A DNA stretch of 64,000 nucleotides from Candidatus Multivoradales bacterium. Its GTDB lineage: Bacteria > Acidobacteriota > Thermoanaerobaculia > Multivoradales > J023. Below the pieces are notes generated by a model that was not told where the DNA came from, made no database searches, and was given only the letters and a program-made list of their open reading frames with translations. Of this stretch, positions 7,658-61,740 are shown piece after piece. Numbering within the stretch: the stretch's first letter is position 1; each line of letters opens with the position of its first letter. The position numbers and the translations under genes were made by a program. Location: contig CBDFLE010000006.1 in NCBI GenBank assembly GCA_965248925.1, positions 4,160,001-4,224,000 on the forward strand. The letters are read 5' to 3'.

Positions 7658-8599
7658 ATGGGGTGGCAAGTCGTGGTGTTGGCGGGGGTAGCGGTGTTTT
7701 CGCCCCCGGCGGGGTCGGCAGAGGATATTCAAGCTCTGGCGCCCGCGATCGACGTCACCAGGATCGGCGGGGCGATGCTGGCTACCCTGCTGGCGGTGTG
7801 GTGGGTGGACCGGCGAATAGCGAGCGGGCGCTTCTTTCCTCCTGGTTTCCACCAGCCGTGGCGGCGGCTGGCAGCGGCGGCGGCCCTCTTCGTGGTTTTT
7901 CTAGTGGGCATTTTTGCTCCGGCGGCGATGTTGGGGCTGGATCTCGGTCTCGATCTGGAAGCACTGCAGGAGCTGAGCAGCTGGGATCTATTCGCCATGG
8001 CCAGACTGCTGACTCTGGCACTGGGGGCTTGGTATTTGCTCGGCTACGTCGGCGTCGGAGTGCGCGGCGCGGCCTGGGGGTGGTTGGGGCAATTCGGCCT
8101 GCGCGCCCGGCGGCCGCAGAGCGAGCTGGTGGTGGGGGTGGTGGCTGGGCTGGGAGCGTGGGCGGCGGCACTGGCCGCCGCGCTCTTGCTGGCCGCCGTG
8201 GTCGGGATCTTTGCCGGCGAGGACTTTCTTCAGGCCCGCGAGTCGCCCGAGGAGATCGTCTGGATGGCGGGGCTGCCGGTGGTGATGCGGATCCTGCTGT
8301 CCCTGTCTGCCGGAATCTTCGAGGAGATCTTCTTTCGTGGCTTCTTGCAGCCGCGTGTTGGCGTTGGGTTGTCCGCCGCCTTTTTCGCCGCCGCTCACCT
8401 GGGCTATGGCGAGCCGATGATGCTCGCTGGGATCATCGTGTTGTCGTTGATTTACGCTGCTTTGGCGCGTTGGCGCGGCAACATCTTGGCGGCGATCACC
8501 GCCCACGTCCTCTTTGATCTAGTGCAGCTCTTGGTGGTGATCCCCGCGGCTCTGGCTGGTCTGGAAGCCAGCGGCGCGGCGGTAGCCGTCTTGCCCTAG
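7658..8599 (+). CDS. CPBP (CAAX/Abi) family intramembrane metalloprotease
   Basis: Multi-TM protein with EEIFFRG, FAAAH and AHVLFD motifs. Confidence 0.88.
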   Translation: MGWQVVVLAGVAVFSPPAGSAEDIQALAPAIDVTRIGGAMLATLLAVWWVDRRIASGRFFPPGFHQPWRRLAAAAALFVVFLVGIFAPAAMLGLDLGLDLEALQELSSWDLFAMARLLTLALGAWYLLGYVGVGVRGAAWGWLGQFGLRARRPQSELVVGVVAGLGAWAAALAAALLLAAVVGIFAGEDFLQARESPEEIVWMAGLPVVMRILLSLSAGIFEEIFFRGFLQPRVGVGLSAAFFAAAHLGYGEPMMLAGIIVLSLIYAALARWRGNILAAITAHVLFDLVQLLVVIPAALAGLEASGAAVAVLP

Positions 8600-28347: not shown

Positions 28348-28419
28348 GACCGTCACCGTATGACCGTCACCGTATGACCGTCACCGTATGACCGTCACTG
28401 TATGACCGTCACCGTATGA
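28348..28419. repeat. 14-bp tandem repeat (GACCGTCACCGTAT) x5
   Basis: Five copies, one with a C>T change, in the intergenic gap. Confidence 0.95.
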
Positions 28420-47705: not shown

Positions 47706-47943
47706 GAATGCCTCCCTGGGTGAACGGCAGCGAGCCTATCCGATCGCGCACCGGGCGGTGAGCCCGCGGCGGCAATCTTTGTCTAGACTGGCCGCAGAGC
47801 GATCCTCGGTGCGCTGTAGAGAATAGGGCTCGAAAGACCGATCACGGAGAGCAGCCATGACCTCGAGCCTCAGCCCTGAGAAGACTCGGCGAAGCGTCCT
47901 GACCCCCGCGATGATCGGCTGTAGCTTCGGCTGTGGGGTGCCC

Positions 47944-48138
47944 GCCGTGCTCAAGGGTAGCCGGTACCTCTTGCTCAAAGGACTGGACAAGCTCAAGCCC
48001 TCCTCCCTGGAGCACCTCGCCCTCCTCATGGAGTTGAGCCAGCCCCTCTACCAGGCCTATCTGCTCAAAGAGGAGCTGCGATGCTGCTGCAGCCTACCGA
48101 ACGAGGCGGCCGGCGAGGACTTCCTCGACGGTTGGACT
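47944..48138 (+). mobile_element. ISL3-family transposase internal fragment
   Basis: VLKGSRYLLLK...LMELSQPLYQAYLLKEELR...FLDGW resembles the ISL3 central region. Confidence 0.7.
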
Positions 48139-48145
48139 ACTCAGC

Positions 48146-48370
48146 GACGTCACCCTCGATTTCTTGACCAGCGACAAAAAGATGCCACAGGCCTGCAAGG
48201 ACCCGGAGAAGATCGAGCGCTGGCGATCCCTCGATGGTCTGCCCACCAGCGACCGAGACAAGATCCCCTACGTCGTCGATGGGCTGATCCGCGACGCGCG
48301 AGCTAGAACAGGCGTATAGCGCTCCCTGAGCCCAAGTACACCAAAGCCCGGCCGAGACCGGGCTTCTGCG
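48146..48370 (+). pseudogene. 3' remnant of XRE-family regulator plus downstream hairpin (copy of 56099-56323)
   Basis: Clear nucleotide similarity to 56099-56323, including AAGCCCGGCCGAGACCGGGCTT. Confidence 0.8.
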
Positions 48371-48476
48371 AATCGGCTGGTACCTATGCTGGGCGACTTG
48401 GCGAATCGGCTGGCACCTATTTAGGCGCCGACTTGGCGAATCGGCTGGCACCTATTTAGGCGCCTATTTAGGCGCC
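48368..48476. repeat. Nested repeat array upstream of the HUH transposase
   Basis: 35-bp unit GACTTGGCGAATCGGCTGGCACCTATTTAGGCGCC x2, plus a diverged partial copy and a 12-bp TATTTAGGCGCC. Confidence 0.9.
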
Positions 48477-48579
48477 TCAGAACTGAGGGAGTGCTCCGGC
48501 CGTCAGGGAGTAGAGCCGTAGATCGTCGCGCTCGAGGTCGGAGGCAAGAACCGAAGATCGTTTCGCGTCTCTGTAGAGT

Positions 48580-49521
48580 ATGGGACGAAATCTACGCTAC
48601 TTGCCGCGCTCCGGGATGCTTGTCGAAGTCACCTGCCGAACCATCCAGGGCCGCTTTCTGTTGCGACCAGGACAGGCATTGAACGAGATCTTCATTGGCT
48701 GCCTGGCCAAGGCTCGCGGTCTGTTCGCCGTCGACATTCACGCTGCCGTGGTGGTCTCCAGCCACTATCACCTTCTAGTTTCGCCAGCGGATAGCGAACA
48801 GTTGGCAAACTTCATGAGGCACCTCAACACCAACCTGTCGAAAGAGGTCGGCAGGATTCATGACTGGCCGGGCACAATTTTCAGCCGTCGCTATCGCGCG
48901 ATTCCAGTGGCCGATCAGGCAGAGATCCAGATTGCTCGACTTCGATACCTGCTGAGCCATGGTGCCAAGGAGGGAGTGGTTTACTCACCAGCGTGTTGGC
49001 CTGGAGCGAACTCGGTCGAGGCGCTTCTGACCGGCGAGCCTCTACGTGGCACCTGGTTCGACCGGAGTCGGGAATGCGCCGCCCGCCAACGGAGGGAATC
49101 TCCATCTCCGAGAGCCTTCGCCACAGAGATGGAGGTCACGCTCCAGCCGCTACCTTGTTGGCGGCATCTGCCACCAGAGGCACGGCAAGCTCGAGTGCGG
49201 AGCTTGATTGAGGAGATCGAAAAGCAGACCCTGGCCATGCACGCCGAACGCGGCACTGAGCCGATAGGTCCCCGTCGCGCTCGGAGAGTCCATCCCCACC
49301 ACCGGCCGAGTCAGGTAAGAAGGTCGCCGGCACCGCGTTTCCATGCTTGGAGCCGGCGACAGCGGCGGCGGCTGGAGAGCGCGTATGCTGAATTCGTCGC
49401 CGCGTATCGCGTTGCTGCCGAGCGCTGGCGAGCAGGTGATTGCTCTGCCAGTTTCCCCGACGGAAGTTTTCGGCCAGCGATGCCCTTTGTTCGGGCTCTG
49501 GAGTCCGTGGCGCCCGGATAG
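48580..49521 (+). mobile_element. HUH Y1 transposase, REP-associated (RAYT-like)
   Basis: VEVTCRT, HAAVVVSSHYHLLV (HUH), FSRRYRA, LRYLLSH (catalytic Tyr), WPGANS; flanked by palindromic repeats. Confidence 0.85.
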
Positions 49522-49666
49522 GCGAAGCGCCTTGATCGCCACCGGGGTCATCGCCAGGCCAGGAAGTTTTCTGAGGACCACCGAGTGGGTGGTCGGTGCC
49601 AACGGCTTTTCGGAAAGTACCCGTAGGGGTGATTTTGGGTCTCTCGGAGCGGGAACCAGAGATTCC

Positions 49667-50055
49667 GGTTCAGCTTGCCCTCCTAAATCGTTCGGAGGAG
49701 TAGGTGGCTCAGCCGATTCCAGGAGCGCAGGTGGTTACCAAGCTCACCTCTTCCAAGAGATGTTTGGCACCTTCTTGGTTCAGCACCTTCTTGGTTCAGC
49801 ACCTTCTTGGTTCAGCTTGCCCTCCTAAATCGTTCGGAGGAGTAGGTGGCTCAGCCGATTCCAGGAGCGCAGGTGGTTACCAAGCTCACCTCTTCCAAGA
49901 GATGTTTGGCACCTTCTTGGTTACCAAGCTCACCTCTTCCAAGAGATGTTTGGCACCTTCTTGGCTCAGCCGATTCCAGGAGCGCAGGTGGTTACCAAGC
50001 TCACCTCTTCCAAGAGATGTTTGGCACCTTCTTGGCACCTTCTTGGCACCTTCTT
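49667..50055. repeat. Nested repeat array downstream of the HUH transposase
   Basis: Eight units (110, 16, 16, 110, 44, 71, 11, 11 bp), all ending CACCTTCTT and starting GG. Confidence 0.95.
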
Positions 50056-50579
50056 GGCAGCCGCCAAACAAGCAGTTCTTGGTTAGATTAGCAAAGCCCT
50101 TGAGCGTAGATCCAGCGAACTCATCCCGGCCTGCTGACTGGTCTGCCAATCGAGAGCGACTTGCTGCTCTGCGTAGGAGCGACACGGATAGAGGTTAGCG
50201 AGTTAGTCCTATTGCTAGCGTCTCGCCGCGTGCTAACCTAGAATTTCAGGTGAATCTCGCCTTATTCAGCTTTCAATCGACCAGGACCTCAAGGGTGCTT
50301 GAGGCTTCTGTATCCCAGGGGGGCCTGCTCTTCACTGAGCCCGGCCGTGGTGCGACCGGTTGTGACTTGGGACCGCATCTTCGGTCTATTTGGACAGCGC
50401 ACTGAGAGCCCCGGGGGAGGCGCCGAGTCGATTGGCCCTTGTTCCTGGGCACTCTTTCTTGCGGTACTTGAATCAGCCTCTGGAGCAGAACAGCATGAAG
50501 TTCTTCAAGATTAAGTACGCCAGAATGGAGAAGTTCCATTGATCACTGTACGCAGTTCCTCGGGCGGAAGGGAGTCGAA

Positions 50580-53500
50580 ATGGGTCAGCAAGTGCATCTC
50601 TTGATCGGTAGCGATCTCGATAGCAAAGCGAAGGGCGTTGAACGGACACCTGGACAAAGTGGGGCCTCCAGGCGCCTGCGGAGCGCTGCCGTGTTGGTTG
50701 CCTTCCTCGCCTTCTTTCCCTTGCTGCCGGCTGGCGCAGAAACCGTTGTCATCGACAACACCACCGCAGGCAGCATCGATGCCTCGACCACCTGTGGTGG
50801 CAGTGAGCTAACCCGTACCTTCACCGTATCCGAAAGTTTCCTGGTGGAAGATGTGGATCTTGGATTCAATGCCTCCCACTTCTGGCGGGGTGACATCCAG
50901 GTCACTCTGCAATCACCGGCCGCAACCTCCGTGGTCATCATCGCTTCGGACGGACTCAACTTCGACAACTACGACCTGGCTCTCGACGACGACGTCGCCG
51001 ACGCGGTCAACGACGGCGACGCGGATACCATCAGCGCCCCGCTCTACCATCTGGACCGTAGCGCCAGCCCGAGCAATCCGTTGGGCACCTTTGTCGGCGA
51101 GAACGTCAATGGCACCTGGACCCTGCTAATCTGTGACACTTTCTCCGGCGCCGATGACGGCACCTTCAACAGCGCTCAGCTGACCTTGCGAGGGCCGGAC
51201 TCAGCTGCGGCGGCCATCGACTGCGTCAACACCGGTAGTGACGGCGACGCGGCCGGCCTCTCGGGGGTCATCAACGCCTACTTCTCACCGGCCGCCAGCG
51301 CCGCCGCCGGAGATAGCTCTCTCCAGGTGACTTCTGCAACGGGACTGGCCGCCGGCGACAAGGTGCTGGTAATTCAGATGCAAGACAGCTCGATCGATTC
51401 CACTGACTCGAGTTCCTACGGCGATGGCTCCGCTGGCGACCCCGCAACCGGCAGCGTCACGGATCGCTGGAGCGGGTACTATGAATTTGTCGGCGTCACC
51501 TCAGTGACCGGCTCGGCACCCAGTATCACCCTAGGCCTTACCACCGCCCTGCAGAACAGCTATTGGTCTCGCGGGCGCTCCAGCTTTCAAGTCATCCGGG
51601 TTCCCCAATATGGAGACGTCACCTTGGGCGGCACCGTGACCGCCTCGGCGTGGAACGGCAGCACCGGCGGTGTGGTCGTTTTGGAAGCTGGCAGTACTCT
51701 GGACTTCAACGGCCAGAGCATCGTTCTCGATGGCCTTGGATTTCGTGGCGGGGTGAGCAACGACAGCGACACTCCGCCAAACTTCTCGGTCTACTTAACC
51801 ACTGACCTGGAAGTTGGAGCAGCCAAAGCAGAGGGTACTGCCGGCACCCCAGCGAGCTCTGGCGGCACCGGCTATCCTGCCGGCGACCTGGCCCGTGGTG
51901 CTCCCGCCAACGCTGGCGGCGGCGGCAACGAGCACAACGCAGGTGGCGGCGGCGGCGGCAATGGCGGCGCCGGCGGCCAGGGCGGTGACACCTGGATCGG
52001 ATTCGGCCAGACCCCCAACGGCGGGGTTGGCGGCGCGGTCTTTCCCGCTAGCCGAAACCGCTTGGTGCTCGGCGGCGGCGGCGGCGCGGGAGCCTCCAAC
52101 GATCTATCGTTCCCGGATGGAGGGAATGGCGGCGGCATCGTCATCATTCAGGCCTATGAAGTCGTCGGAACCGGAACGATTACCGCCGATGGCCTGGGCG
52201 GCGACCCGGCGGACTGCGATGCGGCGGGGGCCGGCGGAGCCGGTGGCTCGGTGCTGGTAGCGGCTCTCAATGGCTCCCTGGCCAATCTGGCTCTCGGTGC
52301 CGACGGCGGTAGCGGCGGCGATTCCACTTGCACAGCTGCCGACCTGCACGGCCCCGGTGGGGGCGGCGGGGGCGGCGCGATCTTCTACTCCACTGGAGCC
52401 GGCACGCCCACCACCTCCGTTGCCGCGGGATCGAGGGGTTCGTTTCTACCCGACATCGTCGCCTATGGTTCGAGCAGCGGACAGGCGGGTACTGTGTCCA
52501 CCTTCACCGCTACTGATTCGATCTGCACCACCTTGCCGGTGACGCTGGCGTCTTTCTCGTCGAGTCGCACCAGACACGGCTGGCAGCTGGAGTGGACCAC
52601 CGCCACTGAGACCTCGACGGTCGGCTACCAGATCTTCGGCCGGATCGGAGACCGTTGGCAGCCGCTCAACGACCCGCTCGTTCCTAGTCACCAAATCGAC
52701 TCCCTCGAGCCCCAACGGTATTCCCTGCAGAGCTACGCGGCTGAGGATTTCGAGGCTTTCAGCTTGGTCGACATTGACATCAAGGGGCGCCATGAGGCTC
52801 ACGGACCCTTCTTCCCGGGCCACCTAGAGGGTCGGGAGGTCGCGGCGAAGGCGATCGACTGGCGCTCCATCGCAGAACAGCGACCGGCCAATCGGCTTTC
52901 GGAAATAGCCCTGAAGAGATTTGACCGGGCATCTAGCGTGGCCGGCAAGATCGCCGGAGGAAAGACACCCACCGCCCTGTGGGTGGACACCGACGGCATC
53001 TACCGGTCGACTCATGAGGAGCTGCTGGCAGCGGGTTTCGATTTCCGCGGCGTGCCGGTGCACCAGATGGCCCTGGAAGATCCTTCCCATGGTTTGGTGC
53101 CGGTCTACATCCAGGGATCCAGGTCCAACCCGCAGGTGTTCGGCCCCGGCGGGTTCGTCGAGTTTCTAGGACGCGCGGTTCGCGACAGCCAGTACACTCG
53201 GAGTCGGGTGTACCACCTCAAGCGGACCCGGAGCAACCTGCCGGTCCGGGTGGTGTCTGCGACGCCTCAGCACCTCCCACCTGCCGTTGGATACGAGGAG
53301 TCGCGAGAGGTTCACCAACAGAATTTCTATAGTTTCGCCTCCCCCAACGGGGATCCTTGGTACCAGGCATCCATTCTTGCCAACGGCGGAGCGGCGAGCC
53401 GGACCTTCGACATCGAAATCGACGCCCTGGCACCGAATGGTGATGCGGTATTGGAAGTAGATCTGTGGGGCGTCACCAATTGGCCGGGATCGGAGCCGGA

Positions 53501-55031
53501 TCATCACCTCGAGATCCGCTTCAACGGTGAGCTGTTAGGCGAGGAGTGGTTCGATGGCCTAACTGCTCGTTCTCTTCACTTTCCGATTGCTATGTCCCGA
53601 TTGAGCGAAGGCCCCCAGCAACTAGAGATCCGCCTGCCTGGTGACACGGGCTTCGCCTTTGATCTTGTTCACCTCGACCGGTTCCGCCTGCGGTATCCCC
53701 GGAAATTCGTCGCCAGCGATGATCGACTCGAGTTCTCAGGTCGATTCCGCGAGGTCGAAGTCGCTGGTTTGTCGAGCCCGAATATCGTCATCTATGCCAG
53801 TGCCTCGACGCGCCTCGATCTGTTCGAAGTAGCCGCAGGCGATGGTGACACCTACACCGCGACCTTCTCGGCGCCTGGTTTTACCGAATTCATCGCAGCA
53901 GGAAGCGACGCTTGGCAGAGCCCTCGAATCGAACAAGTATGGGCACCTTCACCGAATCTTCTCCGCGGCCAGGCTGACTATCTGGTGGTTTCCCATGGTG
54001 ATTTCCTCGGCGAGCTCGATGACCTGATTTCGGCCAGGGAAAGGAGTGGCTTCGAAGTCAAGGTGGTGGATGCTAGAGATCTCTACGCCAGGTACTCTGG
54101 TGGAGTCTTCGATCCTCAGGCAATTCGTCGGTACATCGCGGAAGCCCATCGGCAACTAGGGGTACGTTTTGTGCTCCTGGTGGGCGGCGATACTTACGAC
54201 TACTTGGATCACCTGAGCCTCGGTTCGATCAGCTTTATCCCGACGTTGTATACCCAAACGGACGAGATAGTTCACTTCGCTCCGGCTGACCCGCTGTTCG
54301 GCGACGTCGACGGGGATGGGTTGCCAGATGTGGCCATCGGCCGTCTGCCGGTCCGCACCGCAGAGGAACTGGCAGCGGTGATCGCCAAGACACTGACCTA
54401 CAAGTCCTCCAGAGCAGCAGCCACCTTTGTCTCCGACGACACCCCAGGGCGGACCTTGACCAAGCTGAGCGAAGAGCTGGCGCAGTTCGTTCCGCGGTCA
54501 TGGAAAACGGAGCAGATCAGTCTCGACGACTTGACGGTAACAACAGCTCGAGAGCGGCTGCAAAAGAGCTTTGAGACCGGCCAAGCTCTGATCAACTTCG
54601 TAGGCCACTCCGGCCCCACCGCCTGGACCTTCGACGGCCTACTCGACAGCGCCGATATCGACCAGTTGGACCCTAACGGCAAGCCCTCGGTGGTGATCCA
54701 ATGGGGTTGTTGGAACACCTATCATGTGTCTCCGAGGTACGACACCTTGGGGCACCGTTTCCTGCTCGCTGAAGATGCGGGAGCAGCTGCTGTCATCGGC
54801 TCTTCGATGCTGTCGAAGCTAAGCTCCGATCGAGCTTTGGGCCCAGCAATGTTGGAACGGCTGATGCGGCCGGGCACCAGCCTGGGTCAAGCTATGCTGG
54901 AAGCCAAGCGGTCACTGGGAGCCGGCCAGCCTGAGCTGCTCGATGTCCTCCTCGGTTGGACTTTGTTGGGAGATCCCGCCCTGGTAGTCGTCGGAGGACT
55001 CGGCAGCGACACCGACTTGGCAGCGAATTAG
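50580..55031 (+). CDS. Large secreted C25 (gingipain-family) cysteine peptidase with P-proprotein-like and Gly-rich N-terminal domains
   Basis: SHFWRGDI/GTWTLLICD (P domain), Gly-rich repeats, TLPVTLASF, ADYLVV, LLVGGD, IGRLPV, NFVGHSG and WGC catalytic dyad, LLGDPAL. Confidence 0.85.
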   Translation: MGQQVHLLIGSDLDSKAKGVERTPGQSGASRRLRSAAVLVAFLAFFPLLPAGAETVVIDNTTAGSIDASTTCGGSELTRTFTVSESFLVEDVDLGFNASHFWRGDIQVTLQSPAATSVVIIASDGLNFDNYDLALDDDVADAVNDGDADTISAPLYHLDRSASPSNPLGTFVGENVNGTWTLLICDTFSGADDGTFNSAQLTLRGPDSAAAAIDCVNTGSDGDAAGLSGVINAYFSPAASAAAGDSSLQVTSATGLAAGDKVLVIQMQDSSIDSTDSSSYGDGSAGDPATGSVTDRWSGYYEFVGVTSVTGSAPSITLGLTTALQNSYWSRGRSSFQVIRVPQYGDVTLGGTVTASAWNGSTGGVVVLEAGSTLDFNGQSIVLDGLGFRGGVSNDSDTPPNFSVYLTTDLEVGAAKAEGTAGTPASSGGTGYPAGDLARGAPANAGGGGNEHNAGGGGGGNGGAGGQGGDTWIGFGQTPNGGVGGAVFPASRNRLVLGGGGGAGASNDLSFPDGGNGGGIVIIQAYEVVGTGTITADGLGGDPADCDAAGAGGAGGSVLVAALNGSLANLALGADGGSGGDSTCTAADLHGPGGGGGGGAIFYSTGAGTPTTSVAAGSRGSFLPDIVAYGSSSGQAGTVSTFTATDSICTTLPVTLASFSSSRTRHGWQLEWTTATETSTVGYQIFGRIGDRWQPLNDPLVPSHQIDSLEPQRYSLQSYAAEDFEAFSLVDIDIKGRHEAHGPFFPGHLEGREVAAKAIDWRSIAEQRPANRLSEIALKRFDRASSVAGKIAGGKTPTALWVDTDGIYRSTHEELLAAGFDFRGVPVHQMALEDPSHGLVPVYIQGSRSNPQVFGPGGFVEFLGRAVRDSQYTRSRVYHLKRTRSNLPVRVVSATPQHLPPAVGYEESREVHQQNFYSFASPNGDPWYQASILANGGAASRTFDIEIDALAPNGDAVLEVDLWGVTNWPGSEPDHHLEIRFNGELLGEEWFDGLTARSLHFPIAMSRLSEGPQQLEIRLPGDTGFAFDLVHLDRFRLRYPRKFVASDDRLEFSGRFREVEVAGLSSPNIVIYASASTRLDLFEVAAGDGDTYTATFSAPGFTEFIAAGSDAWQSPRIEQVWAPSPNLLRGQADYLVVSHGDFLGELDDLISARERSGFEVKVVDARDLYARYSGGVFDPQAIRRYIAEAHRQLGVRFVLLVGGDTYDYLDHLSLGSISFIPTLYTQTDEIVHFAPADPLFGDVDGDGLPDVAIGRLPVRTAEELAAVIAKTLTYKSSRAAATFVSDDTPGRTLTKLSEELAQFVPRSWKTEQISLDDLTVTTARERLQKSFETGQALINFVGHSGPTAWTFDGLLDSADIDQLDPNGKPSVVIQWGCWNTYHVSPRYDTLGHRFLLAEDAGAAAVIGSSMLSKLSSDRALGPAMLERLMRPGTSLGQAMLEAKRSLGAGQPELLDVLLGWTLLGDPALVVVGGLGSDTDLAAN

Positions 55032-55679: not shown

Positions 55680-55999
55680 TTGCCGGTCCAAGCTGTCGGT
55701 CTAAGCTGTCAGTCCAAGCTGACAGTCCGGCTGAGATGTCAGCCTTCTATCGGGATCAATAAGACCCGACGCGGGCCCTGGTAGCCCGCTGGGACGCCGA
55801 CCCTCGGCGACTCACGATTTTCACTGGCAAATCATGAAGTCCTCCCGCTGCTCCTCCAATCCGCAGCAGGCAAAATGAAGATTTCAGGCATGCATTGTTT
55901 TGCATGTTTCTTTGGTATCCCCGTTGCACTGGAGCTGAGCAGCACAGCTGAGAGCCGACAGGGAGTGAGTTTGATAGTGGAGCGACGGCTTTCATGGCT
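55680..55999 (+). repeat. ~320-bp direct repeat, copy 1 (13-bp iteron-like units, att-like core, operator)
   Basis: Aligns along its length with 61410-61740. Confidence 0.9.
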
Positions 56000-56633: not shown

Positions 56634-59600
56634 CTAGAATCCTGCCTCATTCATGATCGCTTCCGCGATTCTCTTGATCGTTCCCCGCGCATGAGGGCTA
56701 TGAGGAATCACGGTTACTGTATTCCCAGTCTCTGGGTTAATGACCTTCAAGTGCTTCCCTCCAGCCTTAACCTCGAATCCTGCCCTTTTCGCCATCCGCT
56801 GAAGGAGAGAGGACGCCTTTTTTCCTTTAGACCCAAATGCCTTATTTCCTAGTCTAGCAAGCCTCTGTTGCAGCTTGTTCCCAGCCGCACCCAGCGAGCG
56901 CGCAGCTGTGAATAACGACCCCCCTCTCGGCACCACCCTCGGCCCAATCTTCGAGTACAACCCAGAAGATATTGCCGAAGTGGAGATGGAAGCCGTGATG
57001 TTGTAGAAATACGTCGAAGCCTTCGCGTTCTGCCCGACAAGAGCCATGATCTGACAGTTGATGTTCCCCCCACTGCAGCCGACGGACTTCGGCTGCACAT
57101 TCTACATTAAGATCGGCGGTCCGGGATCAGTACCATCGTCCCAGAACCAGTTGTTGACCATCCAAAGGGGGATCTCTACTCCGGCGGAGTCGTCCACAGG
57201 AAGCGGTGTGGAAAAGACGAATATCTCGTCTGAAAAAGTCGCTGACGGCATCAGCCCAAAGAGGTCCACGAAGCCGATCGGACTGTTCATTACATAGGAG
57301 TAGCGATTGAAGCTCTGCGGGTTATCCTCAGAACCGCCAAACGGATCGATACTCAAGAACCGCCCCACGACCGGACTACAATGCCTAGCATGCATGTAGT
57401 CCAGCTCACTCTTCGCCCCCGCCCCGTTTTTACCCCGCTCATGACCGGTAAATTTCAGCTGAAACTCATCCGAGCTAGAGCTGGTCGCTTCCTGTCCAAA
57501 CGGATAGTAGCTGTGCAGCGCCAACTGGCTGCCGCTCTTCGTCACCTGCCGTGGGGTACCAAGATGATCCAGATGAAAGCTGTAAGTCTCCTCCACTCCG
57601 TTCGCGTCGGGGTCGACTGAAGCCAGCAGCAGCCCACGCCGATAGACGTAGTCCCGCTCCCACTGGAAGCTCTCCCCACATGGATGACTAAAGACCCGCA
57701 GCACTTCGTTGCCCAGCCCGCGCAGGGTCCAGGTCTCGCTGGCCGGGCTGCTGACGCAGCTGCCGCCGGCGGCGCTAAAGCAGCTGAAGGTGACGATGCG
57801 CTCGTCATCAGCGTTGTAGATGTACACGCTCGCCTGGTCGGTATTGGATTGCAGGTGCTTCATCATGTTGGCGGCGTCGTAGGTGTACTGGTAGATCTCC
57901 GAGCTACTGTAACGCACGCGGGTCAGGTTTCCCCCAGCGTCATGGGTGGTGCCGCTGAGGCCGAGGCGGTTGGTGCTGCTGCTCGGGCTCATGGTCTGGC
58001 TGGCGCCGTGGGTGACCATCTGGGTAAGGTTGCCGAAGTTGTCATAGCTCGCGGTCTGTAGGCGGTCGTTGCTGCCGACTTTTACCTCGCCGCTGACCAG
58101 GCGCTGGAATCGGTCGTAGCGATATTGCAAGGAGCCGATGCGGTGGATATTTCCGGCTCCGTCGTAGTCGAAGGTGCCGGTGTCCCAGCCTGCGTTGGTA
58201 GAGATGCGCTCGGGCCGGGCGAGGCCGGAGGGATCGACCTGGTAGGTTTCGGTGATGCCGCTCTGGTGGCTGATCTGGGTCAGCATGCCGCCGCTCTGGT
58301 AGCTGAGGTCAGAGGCGAAGCCGGGCACCGCGGTGAGGAAGCCCTTGTCGTAGGCGTAACTCACCAGCCACGGCGGGCTGACCTGGTCGCAGCTGTCGTT
58401 GCTGTGCAGGCAGTCAGGATAGTCGAGGGTCGCGAGGTTGCCTTGCAGATCGAAGGTGAAGCCGGCCTGGAAGGCGTAGTGGCCGACGCCGAGCTGGTAG
58501 CGGGTCTGGCGCTCGGACATCCGCCCACCGCGACCCGCGTAGACGAAGCTCTCGGAGATCCGGACATCGAGGAAGCCAGGGTTGGCGTTCAGCGGATTCA
58601 CCAGATCCACCCAATTGTGGCGGGTGGTCTGCACCAGCTTGCCGGCCCGCTTGTCACTGCCGATGTTCTGGCGGCCGTAGCGGAACTCCTTGAGCTTGCG
58701 CGGCGAGCCGCCGTTGTTCTCGTCGACGCGGATCAGGCGTCCGGCGGGATCATAGAGGTAGTCGAGGTCGAAGGCGGTGGAGCCGGTGATGCGTTTGCTC
58801 AAGACGTTCCCGCGACCGTCATACGAATAAGCCGAGGCGCCGTTGCCCACCGGGCCGACTTCGGGATGGGTCTCGGAGGTCAGGAAGCTGCGACCGTCAT
58901 AGTTGAAGAAGCGTTGCTGGCCACAGGTCGATCCAGTCCGATTCTGGCAGACGTGGGAAAGCCGCGAGCCGGCATCATAGGCATAGCGAGTCAGCAAGCC
59001 GTCGGCGTTGCAGCTGCCGTTCCAGGTTGCCGATCTGCCCTCGCAGACCGCGAACAATCGGCCCTGGCCATCTGAGATTTCGGTGTTGTAGGTGTCTTCC
59101 TGCACTCCGGAGGCGAGCATCACTTTGAACCGCCGCGTCTTGGTGCGTTCGCCCTCGTAGCTGAGGAATGTGGCCGGCTGGCTTGGTGGGGTGATCCTGC
59201 CGGGGCGGCCGAAGTTGTCGTACTGCTCGTACTTGGTGACGCGGGAATCGGCGCTAGAGCTGAGGGTCCTCACTGACTCCTCGGTCTTCCAGGCCCGTGG
59301 GTTGAAGCTCATGTGGCGGTACCAGCGCACTCCGCCGGGCAACTGCACCTGCTCTTTGACCCGGCGGCCGAGGCCGTCGAAAGTGTGCTGGCGGTAGGCC
59401 AGCAGGCCGGAGCCCGAGCAAGCGGCGGTGGTGACGCATTGCTCTTCGGTCAGCAGCGGCACCAAGTTGAAGTTGCTCTGGGTGGCCAGCCGGTAGGTGT
59501 AGCGGCGCACCGCCTCGCTCTCGGGAAACTCGTGGGTCAAGCGGCCCTGCCGGTCATAGAGGAAGTCGATCTTGACCCCGGCGCTGTCTCGGCTGCGTTT

Positions 59601-60580
59601 GACCAAGCCGGTGTTCTTGTCGAGATCGTAGTCGGCCAGTTTGAGTAGCACTTCGCTGGTGGCGCAAGGGTTGACCACCGTCGAGTTTCTCAGCACGCCG
59701 TACTGGTAGCCGTAGTTGGTGCGGTAAAGGGCGCCGGATTGGGCCGGGTTGATGCTGCCCAGGCTTGCGGTGCTGATCGCCTGGCTGTCGCCGCCGTATT
59801 GCAGCTCAGAGGCGACGAAGCCGGTGCTGCCAGCCTGCACGAAGATGCTCAGCAGGTCGTTCGACTGCCGCGAGCCACCTGCCAACACCCTGCGTTTGCG
59901 CAGGAAGCCGTTGACTAGCGCAAAGTCATACTCGGTGGATTCGGTGACGCCGTTCTCGGTCACCGATTGCGAGTTGAAGGTCTCCAGCACCCAGGGCTGG
60001 GTCTGGCCGAACATGGCGAAATCGGTGGCCGGATCGATGGCGCCGGTGTCGCTGTTGGCGATCAGATAGGAGCCGCGATTCTGGTTGTAGAAGGTCTCGC
60101 TCGCGCGCACGTTGCCACTGGCGAAGTTGCCACCGGTGGTGGTGGTGCGGAAATGGCCCAGGCCATCGAAGTCCGAGTGGGTGACCTCGCGGAACTTGTC
60201 GCCGTCGTCGTGGTAGATAACTTTGCGGTACTTCATCCGGTGGTTGCGGTCGGCGTAGGTCCCGGATGGACCGTCGTTCTCATACTCCAGGAAGATCGAG
60301 CGGCGCTTGCTGCCGCTGGCCACCGAGCCCTGGTAGATCTCTTGCGACAAATAGGGCGGGTTGTTGTTGAAGTAGTCGTTGGTGCCCGGCGTGCAGCGGG
60401 TGAAGGGCAGGCCGAAGCCTTGGCGATTAGCGCCCGCGGAGTTAAACCAGTGCTTCGTGTCGTTGCCTAGCGGGTCGGTCAAGGTGAGAGTGTGGTAGCA
60501 GGAGATCTGGCCGGGACCGAGCACTCCCTGGGGATCGTAGTCATAGGTCCAGATGCCGTGGGGCGAGTTTGGATAGTCGC
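56634..60580 (-). pseudogene. Rhs toxin gene: 5'-truncated, in-frame TAG at 57102-57104, HicA-like C-terminal domain (56634-57101)
   Basis: YD repeats; HLDHLGTPR, YPFGQE, KFTGHER, GRFLSIDP, FVDLFG core. Frame continues past a single TAG to AKRAGFEVKAGGKHLKV...VIPH...GTIKRI. No start codon or N-terminal region. Confidence 0.85.
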
Positions 60581-61409: not shown

Positions 61410-61740
61410 TGGCCGGTCCAAGCTGTCAGCTCGGACTGTCAGTCGAAGCTGACACTCCGAGCTGACAGTCCGGCTGACATGTCAGCTCTATCAGGATCGA
61501 TAAGACCCGACGCGGAGTCGGGCAGCCCGCTGCTCCTCCAACCCTCGGCGGTTCACCATTTTCACTGACAAATCGTGAAATTCTCCCGCTGCTTCTCCAA
61601 CCCGCAGCTGGCAAAACGAAGATTTCAGGCATGCATGTTTCTGCATGTTTCTCTGGTATACCCGTTGCAATATAGCTGAGCAGAACAGCTGAAAGGCGAC
61701 AGGGAGCGAGGTTGATAGTGGAGCTACGGCTTTCACGGCT
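61410..61740 (+). repeat. ~330-bp direct repeat, copy 2
   Basis: Aligns with 55680-55999; ends where the XRE gene would begin. Confidence 0.9.

Follow-up and report, generated by a model that had tools for sequence, protein, structure and literature searches.

Nested repeat arrays anchored at the terminus of a TIRtron-like element beside an intact Y1 HUH transposase gene

The 64,000-nt stretch of contig CBDFLE010000006.1 from a Candidatus Multivoradales bacterium analysed here (the window) carries at 48580-49521, on the plus strand, a gene for a 313-aa TIRYT-like Y1 HUH transposase, identified from its open reading frame (ORF), its homologues, and profile and fold matches. The gene stands between two repeat arrays, an upstream one at 48368-48476 and a downstream one at 49667-50055. 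The first-pass annotation of this DNA had described the enzyme as similar to REP (repetitive extragenic palindrome)-associated tyrosine transposases (RAYTs), and had proposed that it may build or diversify its own repeat array at one fixed site rather than transpose. We examined the protein, the arrays and the relatives of the locus, and asked which process could have produced a nested array with one fixed end.

The catalytic residues of the transposase are conserved. H62 and H64 of the HUH motif (here HYH) and Y123 (in RLRYLLSHGAKEG) were invariant in 26 of 26 aligned members of the family, and the HUH and Y motifs of the alignment line up with the HVH and Y motifs of ISDra2 TnpA. A profile search of the PDB matched ISDra2 TnpA (2xm3) at E 3e-6 and Escherichia coli TnpA_REP (4er8) at E 0.035. 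The AlphaFold model (mean predicted local distance difference test score 86) had TnpA_REP 4er8 as its best Foldseek match (E 6e-6, target template modelling score 0.73, 154 columns), followed by the ISDra2 and IS608 TnpA structures. The invariant HUH and Y residues, taken with the 2xm3 and 4er8 matches, identify the product as an intact Y1 HUH enzyme with a TnpA_REP-like core of ~150 aa and a conserved C-terminal extension of ~160 aa, as judged from sequence and predicted fold. Pfam Y1_Tnp was matched at E 4.2e-4 with 20.9 bits, under the gathering cutoff of 23, and many relatives carry the precomputed PF01797 assignment. At E <= 1e-3 there were 915 homologues, nearly all 300-320 aa long and matched over their full length; they came mostly from Thermoanaerobaculia/Acidobacteriota and were often labelled RayT at the source.

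The RAYT label itself was not supported. The NCBIfam equivalog model for RAYTs (REP_Tyr_transpos, NF047646) gave 32.4 bits and its cutoff of 80 was not reached. The class-2 motif of RAYT/TnpA_REP proteins, Y---NP, does not occur in the family: the window protein has Y123-LLS-HG, and the family has Y-[LIV]-[LF]-S-H-G, or Q/N and then G, with no proline at this place. The intact Y1 HUH part of the first-pass description therefore stood, whereas a REP-associated RAYT did not, given the 32 bits against 80, the multi-copy state of the family and the failure to find REP hairpins or dispersed repeats.

The C-terminal extension (residues ~140-313; window 48997-49518) has conserved positions of its own. 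C193, W194, H240 and H255 were invariant in 26 sequences and H196 was invariant in a nine-sequence alignment. Residues ~150-313 had no counterpart in the matched TnpA structures and no Pfam or PDB match, and a Pfam scan of the transposase found no helicase domain. For the extension, Atlas returned unnamed clusters alone (top score 0.91, 161 of 256 features shared), which is a lead at most. Its conserved residues could form a metal site or belong to a DNA-binding module. A second 313-aa ORF in the window (7658-8599) was considered as a copy of the gene and proved unrelated (BLASTP E 18).

The downstream array was resolved by exact greedy decomposition against its first 110 bp. It consists of units of 110, 16, 16, 110, 44, 71, 11 and 11 bp, in which every base matches the 110-bp master with 0 mismatches and each unit ends in ...CACCTTCTT. 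Tandem Repeats Finder (TRF) reported periods of 142, 44, 16 and 11 in the same region, each with 100% matches, in agreement with this decomposition, and the eight units with a shared end described in the first-pass annotation were thus reproduced to the base. Unit order and copy number are those of the assembly, in which the source contig is 5.2 Mb long. The master (49667-49776, plus strand, as are all units) is the original right-terminal segment of the element and keeps its native left context: its left neighbour runs into the 3' region of the gene. It is followed by two 16-bp units, GGTTCAGC/ACCTTCTT (49777-49792 and 49793-49808; TRF period 16 x 3.1, 100%; here and below a slash in a sequence marks the join), in which master positions 1-8 are fused to positions 103-110 through a GC/GC microhomology, as had been proposed. 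A second full 110-bp unit is found at 49809-49918 by the same decomposition. The next two units, of 44 bp (49919-49962, master 67-110) and 71 bp (49963-50033, master 40-110), both restart after AGGT, and the array closes with two 11-bp units, GGCACCTTCTT, at 50034-50044 and 50045-50055 (master 100-110). The right flank at 50056-50062, GGCAGCC, opens with the same 4 nt, GGCA, as the 11-mer.

The restart points 49667, 49706, 49733 and 49766 are GG sites. In the circularised master TGG occurs exactly four times, each time at one of the four junction points, which bears out the earlier description of one fixed end with variable restarts. All window junctions share GG, TGG or TTGG, a microhomology of 2-4 nt. 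The novel junctions are CTT/GGTTAC, CTT/GGCTCA, CTT/GGCACC and CAGC/ACCTT. Cleavage of the form Y/GG had been suggested for the restarts; the GG sites are real, but the junctions can equally be read as YGG/ or as 2-4 nt of microhomology, and no common motif was found in relatives. The sequence TGGCACCTTCTTGG, allowing up to 2 mismatches, had 8 matches, all within the array, against 0.54 expected. Four of the five distinct junction types use one donor position (P = 3.7e-6 under a null in which donors are uniform over the 110 positions; P ~0.016 if donors are limited to the four TGG sites), and for four acceptors drawn from nine GG sites the probability of including all three TGG sites was P = 0.048. 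These results confirm that the downstream array is a real, non-random feature. The perfect identity of its units suggests recency rather than maintenance.

Relatives of the locus were collected by a profile search of genome contigs with the nine-sequence alignment. The search found 431 stretches, and the best 80 (L001-L080) were analysed; the source genome is outside this set, and the best identity among the 80 loci was 55%. Several metagenome-assembled genomes (MAGs) hold many loci, with up to 8 of the best 80 from one MAG, and the source contig encodes at least three family members. On this same 5.2-Mb contig, the protein P0122 is a 90%-identical copy whose first two codons are replaced by an in-frame TPR N-terminus (Pfam TPR_12, E 8.9e-11), which marks it as a putative copy 5'-truncated at the very start of the ORF, inside a TPR gene. 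The contig also encodes P0003, a 63%-identical paralogue.

The ends of the family were aligned on a shared motif. Among 73 sequences (72 loci and the window), 47 have GCACC in forward orientation at +180 to +340 past the stop codon, and 16 have the reverse motif there (Fisher P = 3.5e-7). Right ends aligned on it read ...GA(A/T)TCGG(C/G)TG-GCACC(T/C) followed by a short variable tail, that is GAWTCGGSTGGCACC-tail. The left ends, at ~-50 to -130, are in many loci the reverse complement, tail-AGGTGCCA(G/C)CCGA(A/T)TC. L006 and L007, from different genomes, are 94.7% identical from -54 to +234, and L001 and L002, again from different genomes, are 83% identical from -122 to +258. Because similarity between genomes is confined to the span from one terminal inverted repeat (TIR) to the other, the family consists of discrete, multi-copy units of ~1.2-1.5 kb that resemble insertion sequences (ISs) and carry TIRs. 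This sharing of discrete units by different genomes contradicts the suggestion that the enzyme builds arrays rather than transposing. No target-site duplications were evident by eye around L006 and L007. A Y1 gene flanked by TIRs, the arrangement that characterises TIRYTs and TIRtrons, was found at the level of the family; in the window copy alone the TIR geometry is seen only in 7-nt cores, the longer 10-mer part being reversed. The segment at ~48.47-49.78 kb is best explained as one IS-like, TIRtron-type copy, with a Y1 HUH gene between termini made of GGCRCCT and a tail of a few nt.

The right terminus of this copy, TGGCACCTTCTT (49765-49776, plus strand), is the fixed end of every array unit. 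The first GGCACC of the window lies 245 nt past the stop codon, inside the family range, and in the nearest relatives, L001 and L002, the gene is followed at +246 to +258 by this same terminus with its tail, as GGCACCTTCTTGG or GGAACCTTCTTGG (shared form ...GG(C/A)ACCTTCTTGG). The fixed end of the array is thus identified, by comparison with these relatives, as the right terminus of the element. Since L001 and L002 end in the same way and GGCACC lies at the family distance, 49667-49776 is the native terminal 110 bp, and 49777-50055 (279 bp) holds seven additional copies of this right-terminal segment. Every junction partner contains GG, so the break could follow either CTTCTT or CTTCTTGG; at the right end the top strand finishes ...TGGCACCTTCTTGGCAGCC. 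Past the same terminus, the flank is GGCAGGC in L002, and GGCCAGC and GGCTGGCAGCC in L001. Between the stop codon and the repeated segment, the non-coding 3' part of the element (49522-49666, plus strand) had no Rfam match and no significant fold (z = -0.04). In relatives, ~215-300 nt separate the stop codon from the right terminus. Within this region, eight loci (L027, L028, L029, L040, L045, L060, L062 and L076) share a conserved, subfamily-specific non-coding block, ...CTTGACA...GATTTT...GCTTATCCA..., ~40-75 nt before the right terminus. Another block, ...TCGGCCGAGAGCGG...CGCACGAGGTTCGG..., is present in the 3' non-coding region of a subfamily made up of L022, L025, L030, L035, L067 and L079. 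L050 has a variant terminus, with a perfect 14-bp x 5.0 array, CGTCTTCTGGGATC, at the right-end position (+200 to +269) and without the GCACC core.

The contigs of 11 of the 80 relatives end within 420 nt past the gene (L001, L013, L017, L021, L023, L029, L053, L055, L065, L066 and L080), and some of these stop 2-12 nt past it. This suggests that the right ends of the element regularly break short-read assemblies.

The upstream array (48368-48476, strand not assigned) was defined by TRF, which gave period 35 x 2.8 at 48368-48464 and period 12 x 2.6 at 48447-48477, and by sequence. It comprises a diverged 33-nt unit (48368-48400), a 35-nt unit (48401-48435), a partial unit of 29 nt (48436-48464) and a 12-nt unit, TATTTAGGCGCC (48465-48476). 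The long units read GCGAATCGGCTG-GGCACC-TATTT-AGGCGCC-GACTTG. The sequence GAATCGGCTGGCACCT, present three times in this array, agrees with the right-end consensus of the family, and the array thus carries a right-end-type motif that points toward the gene. The first-pass annotation had given both arrays the same logic. The upstream array is real, but the CCTATTT ending ascribed to its units depends on the phase chosen, and it is not a simple mirror image of the downstream one.

A left terminus was tentatively placed at 48465-48481 on the minus strand, at -116 to -99 from the ATG; its core is just 7 nt long and has one mismatch to the right end. The bottom strand there reads ...TCTGA-GGCGCC-TAAATA, with the 12-nt terminal unit reiterated. 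This grammar of GGCRCC and a tail, stuttered, is like that of the left ends of relatives, and in an alignment with L001 and L002 their conserved block CTCGGAAC lies opposite CTCAGAAC. The 10-mer CAGCCGATTC occurs in forward orientation at 49710, 49852 and 49967 and in reverse (GAATCGGCTG) at 48370, 48403 and 48438, three copies on each side of the gene and none elsewhere in the 64 kb, which agrees with the inverted motif reported earlier on both sides. A left-end-type TIR motif, TAGGTGGCTCAGCCGATTC, lies inside the master at 49701-49719 (plus strand), inverted with respect to its upstream partner GAATCGGCTGGCACCT; further copies stand in the second 110-bp unit and, from GGCTCAG on, in the 71-bp unit, and the motif may be compared with the left ends of L001 and L002, GGGGGYCAGRCGATTCC. 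The longer part of the TIRs in the window is therefore opposite to the family norm. Upstream there is GAATCGGCTG-GGCACCT with its tail facing the gene, and downstream, within the master, AGGTGGCTCAGCCGATTC; only the 7-nt cores (AGGCGCC and GGCACCT) face outward. Inversion of the gene between its TIRs was considered as a cause of this odd geometry and rejected on logic, because inverting a segment between inverted repeats leaves their orientation to the gene unchanged. The upstream array resembles a right-end/TATTT/left-end junction that has been reiterated, or else the remnants of a neighbouring copy. No dispersed solo TIRs or motif copies were found beyond the locus within the 64-kb window.

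Structural signals were sought at the locus. Predicted single-stranded folds of the master and both flanks were not clearly below those of shuffled sequences (z = -0.94, -1.95, -2.29, -1.31 and -0.04, of which -0.94 and -1.95 belong to the master), and the nominal signal of -2.29 in the upstream array comes from repeats pairing with each other. A search of the whole window gave no Rfam match that reached its gathering score, and over 48300-50600 none appeared even at E <= 1. A promoter and terminator scan was uninformative, with no promoter-like site and 5 terminator-like sites against 2.3 expected. Just before the first upstream unit, at 48346-48367, lies a GC-rich hairpin, GCCCGG-CCGAGA-CCGGGC followed by TTCT, which is terminator-like and was not listed by the scan. 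We also considered a subterminal hairpin formed with an inverted copy of the terminus, in which the AGGT/GG restarts would be the 5' arms. This was rejected as a feature of the family; the inverted terminus hexamer showed no excess in relatives, being present upstream of the right end in 3 of 51 loci and in a control zone in 2 of 51.

Arrays like those of the window recur in the family. TRF found short arrays of GGCACC and tail ~220-320 nt past the gene in many loci, and mirror-image arrays (tail and AGGTGC) before it. These stutters have units of 10-16 nt and occur at both termini; examples are L044 (GGCACCTCGTCT), L021 (x 4), L018 (many, at both ends), L027, L040, L047 (GCACCTTCTTA x 2) and L001 (GCACCTTCTTGG x 2). 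The 11-bp unit of the window is the minimal terminal stutter of the family, with comparable units in L001, L047, L044, L027, L040 and others. At 15 of 52 loci the terminal 10-mer is met again within 200 nt, compared with 11 of 260 control 10-mers taken inside the gene (P = 6e-7). In the right-end zone the density of tandem arrays was 2.02 per kb (Poisson P = 2e-19) and in the left-end zone 1.48 per kb (P = 5e-15), compared with 0.26 per kb elsewhere in the loci and 0.14 per kb within the gene. The terminal motif lies inside 19 of 34 right-end and 21 of 33 left-end arrays. The expectation that the flanks of homologues carry nested arrays with one fixed end was thus answered positively, by the stutters, the end-zone enrichment and a 521-nt unit in L041.

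The L041 unit extends from gene nt 662 to the terminus and is duplicated at 99.6% identity directly past it, on a contig of 2.56 Mb; at the junction, ...GGCACCGTGCATGGCGG/CGCCGAAGG, no more than 1 nt is shared. Fourteen relatives were decomposed greedily with a minimum segment of 7 nt. The result was noisy, and the clear cases (L018, L021, L038, L040, L041, L044 and L048) were used. Units with variable starts that all run to the terminus were found in L018, L038, L040 and L048, with some divergence. In L027 and L040, two-copy units start exactly at GGCACC with 0 microhomology, which argues for defined breakpoints and hints at a second preferred breakpoint 5' of GGCACC. No common restart motif was found in relatives.

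Extra copies of the gene itself accompany 14 of the 80 loci, as 19 high-scoring segment pairs (HSPs), all on the strand of the main copy (binomial P = 1.2e-4). Twelve of these copies are 5'-truncated, starting at aa 74-245, yet reach the C-terminus; they are up to ~800 nt long and end at the right terminus. The others include a nearly full-length copy in L070, one cut by the contig end in L014, a 3'-truncated one in L025, and internally deleted ones in L035 and L079. Identity of the extra copies to the neighbouring full copy ranges from 70% to 99.6%, and this spread suggests that the duplication process is both old and ongoing. Analogous structures lie on contigs of 0.26-4.4 Mb in L027, L038, L041, L044, L045, L070 and L073.

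The family matches a described kind of element. RAYT-like genes flanked by TIRs were named TIRtrons, and their proteins TIRYTs, by Di Nocera et al. in 2013 (PMC3733652); that account has four TIRYT groups, with a sharply defined one from Acidobacteria, and TIRs sometimes in dimers or clusters. Quentin et al. (2018) treat TIRYTs within the classification of the Y1 superfamily, and describe the class-2 (TnpA_REP) proteins by Y---NP and low copy number (PMC6006769); RAYTs are typically present in one copy per genome (PMC5581495). The present family fits the TIRYT/TIRtron kind by its architecture as published. Both have RAYT-like Y1 HUH genes that are longer than RAYTs and have TIRs instead of REP hairpins, and the left TIR of L002, GGGGGTCAGACGATTCC, contains GGGGTCAG, which fits the GGGGWSAS motif given in the published description. 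In contrast, the common core of the family, GGCACC/GGTGCC, does not fit GGGGWSAS. The family is also multi-copy, as noted above, and has the nested terminus-anchored arrays and 5'-truncated tandem copies, which, as far as our literature searches show, are undescribed for the TIRYT class.

Other HUH systems share parts of this picture. The E. coli REPtron (TnpA_REP; Ton-Hoang et al. 2012, PMC3333891) provides the best structural match, 4er8; inverted repeats flank its gene as well, and the cleavage and strand transfer reported for TnpA_REP in vitro could give an array of this kind. Unlike the REPtron, our locus had no GTAG-tagged hairpin that we could find and no dispersed repeats in 64 kb, and the family is multi-copy, with a gene that moves with its ends as a unit and an additional C-terminal domain of ~160 aa. 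The IS200/IS605 elements (IS608 and ISDra2 TnpA) have the Y1 HUH core and are likewise small, with one transposase gene, but they are described as having subterminal hairpins, no TIRs and both cuts on one strand (PMC3333891). In contrast, the present family has TIRs and no conserved hairpin that we found, and its 313-aa protein is ~2x as long as TnpA (~130-150 aa). IS91, ISCR and Helitron elements share an HUH enzyme, one fixed and one variable end, and tandem or truncated copies. Their enzymes are of the Y2 or Rep-helicase type, and in them the origin end is fixed whereas the termination end varies. Here, in contrast, along the gene-sense strand it is the 3' terminus that is fixed and the 5' end that varies, and no helicase domain was found.

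The exact structure of the array, the coincidence of its fixed end with the terminus of the element and the return of the same pattern in other family members require, in our reading, a break or stall that happened repeatedly at the terminus, with restart further in, and that is tied to the family and not to local sequence. The arrays in homologues favour an element-specific process anchored at one site. We consider a transposase-dependent, terminus-anchored duplication process the probable source of the arrays (probability about 0.58). The simplest candidate agent would be the element's own transposase, and it is the involvement of this enzyme, the nick position and the restart chemistry that we infer. 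The transposase would bind the terminus and either nick just past the tail on the strand whose 3' end points outward, or block replication. The freed or stalled 3' end would then re-initiate upstream, by re-priming on 2-4 nt of (T)GG or by strand transfer to a weak secondary site, and the terminal segment would be copied anew as far as the same terminus. Repeated rounds would give a stack of nested, terminus-anchored tandem duplications, and the 16-mers would need one further switch at the GC microhomology, or a deletion. As the ends are inverted repeats, the top strand would carry the site at the right end and the bottom strand would carry it at the left end, giving mirror-image stutters. The left terminus would thus undergo the same process in mirror image, and the lengths seen in relatives, from ~10 nt to ~800 nt, would be products of it. 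Secondary enzymatic cuts would not be needed, since the restarts of relatives have no common motif.

Parts of such a process have been described in other systems. HUH enzymes such as those of IS608 and ISDra2 and TnpA_REP nick one strand, leaving a 3'-OH and a 5'-phosphotyrosine (PMC3333891). In vitro, E. coli TnpA_REP is reported to cut on both sides of its bound repeat, where a dinucleotide suffices and distant cuts are possible, and its strand transfer assembles tandem copies of bacterial interspersed mosaic elements (BIMEs), for which a local-amplification model was proposed (PMC3333891). The idea that an HUH enzyme builds an array locally thus already has a published precedent in TnpA_REP and BIMEs. 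In mammalian cells, nicks converted by replication give rise to small microhomology-mediated tandem duplications (PMC9314409), which may support the mechanism by analogy only. The first-pass proposal that the array records repeated events at one site tied to the HUH enzyme is thus supported indirectly, by the family-wide pattern; its nick, strand-transfer or rolling-circle steps are at the level of inference.

Several observations weigh against a transposase-dependent process. Our literature searches found neither biochemical nor read-level data that bear on this element or on any TIRYT. No hairpin able to guide a Y1 enzyme was found at the ends of the element or in relatives, and the TIR geometry of the window (48370-48453 and 49701-49719) is atypical. 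The 2-4 nt of (T)GG at every window junction are also what polymerase slippage alone would favour, and stutters of 10-16 nt are its classic product. The lack of a shared motif at the restart sites of relatives gives no indication of specific secondary cleavage, and the distance from GGCACC to the unit end varies from ~11 to 18 nt between loci, with no fixed cut offset. In 37 of the 52 loci with a recognisable terminus the terminus does not recur. Finally, large duplications are found at the right end only and short stutters at both ends, which symmetric nicking does not predict.

Some of these points are shared with a rival account, in which plain replication slippage or microhomology-mediated template switching acts without the transposase and the terminus is a hotspot by its local sequence alone. 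Several features of the locus favour it: CTTCTTGG lies next to several TGG sites, GGCA is repeated 11 nt apart and begins the flank as it begins the 11-mer, an ideal substrate for slippage, the junctions share (T)GG or GC, and all three TGG sites are used. The dominant units in relatives are also of a size typical of slippage. Four equivalent TGG sites should however yield other donors too, and none was seen (~0.016). The hotspot is moreover the element terminus in many relatives with unrelated tails, the pattern recurs in mirror image at the left end, and the tandem-repeat density at the ends, 1.5-2.0 per kb, is far above that of the gene and flanks. The 521-nt duplication with its minimal microhomology and the exact units of L027 and L040 would be poor slippage products. 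We therefore consider slippage alone unlikely. Improbable to a similar degree is an account in which the units are separate insertions, made by polar transposition from the right terminus that prefers the element's own terminus as target and leaves abortive, 5'-truncated copies head to tail. The excess of 5'-truncated copies (12, against one 3'-truncated in L025 and two internally deleted) and the common strand of 19 of 19 extra HSPs would follow from it, as would the abutment of right and left ends within ~20-40 nt in L025 and L079, the resemblance of the upstream array in the window to a right-end/spacer/left-end junction, and, in the source genome, the fusion of a second copy, minus its first two codons, to a TPR gene. 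In the window, in contrast, every unit matches the adjacent master at 100%, and an extra copy in a relative is usually most similar to its neighbour (up to 99.6%), which local duplication fits at least equally well. Several fragments (L027 and L030) start at no recognisable terminus, and no known HUH mechanism gives 5'-truncated insertions. The bolder form of this account, that TIRYT elements move by a polar, replication-coupled pathway running from the right terminus toward the left end and undescribed for HUH transposases, is likewise unlikely. If it were true, the head-to-tail 5'-truncated copies would be a DNA-level counterpart of the 5' truncation of long interspersed nuclear elements, the nested arrays would be a base-resolution log of initiation and abortion points, and array building would be intrinsic to the element and not a repair accident.

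Two further explanations concern the array as such. Identical nested repeats of 11-110 bp are hard for short reads, and the ends of contigs just past the gene in 11 of 80 relatives show that assemblers have trouble here. The array could then be an assembly artefact or a population composite, in which variant junctions were threaded into one path and the true locus holds at most one terminal segment. Each novel junction must however occur in reads in order to be assembled, the source contig is 5.2 Mb long and analogous structures lie on other long contigs, and an artefact could not explain the older, diverged copies in relatives; we regard this account as very unlikely. Still further from probable is a functional array kept by selection, either as a multi-site binding platform or as a regulatory or terminator array for neighbouring genes. 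TIR and REP clusters are said to have host functions in other systems, and the array lies ~520 bp upstream of a large C25-peptidase-like gene. On the other hand, no Rfam match, promoter-like site or significant fold was found at the locus, unit composition varies by locus with no conserved architecture, and the perfect identity of the units points to recency.

A transposase-dependent, terminus-anchored process makes definite predictions. The proposed substrate would be GGCACC with its tail, broken at or next to CTTCTT(GG), and the outward 3' strand would be acted on at each end. Our searches of the available literature found no characterisation of TIRYT biochemistry (cut site, strand or mode of movement). 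If the dependence on the enzyme holds, the idea developed for TnpA_REP, of a domesticated or semi-domesticated HUH enzyme that makes arrays beside its own gene, would extend to a second, IS-like branch, and there would be a reason for the breaks that these elements cause in short-read assemblies of Acidobacteriota. Should it fail to hold, the locus would still be a clean natural case of break-anchored, microhomology-mediated tandem duplication in bacteria.

The neighbourhood of the element holds other repeats and a second mobile element. Directly upstream of the upstream array, 47857-48306 encodes a fragment of an ISL3-family transposase (Pfam DDE_Tnp_ISL3, E 5.8e-9, profile 112-179 of 240), a degraded mobile element at the same spot. 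Downstream, 50580-55031 encodes a protein of 1483 aa in which a C25 peptidase domain accompanies a proprotein-convertase P-domain, and 57102-60524, on the minus strand, encodes a 1140-aa RHS-repeat protein. Two related repeats of ~75 nt with a 13-nt periodicity (GTCCAAGCTGWCA...GTCCGGCTGA.ATGTCAGC) lie at 55680-55750, after the C25-peptidase-like gene, and at 61410-61490, near the RHS-repeat gene; they make up a dispersed repeat family of their own. Another tandem repeat, at 28348-28419, has 14-bp units, GACCGTCACCGTAT x 5.1, with 96% matches.

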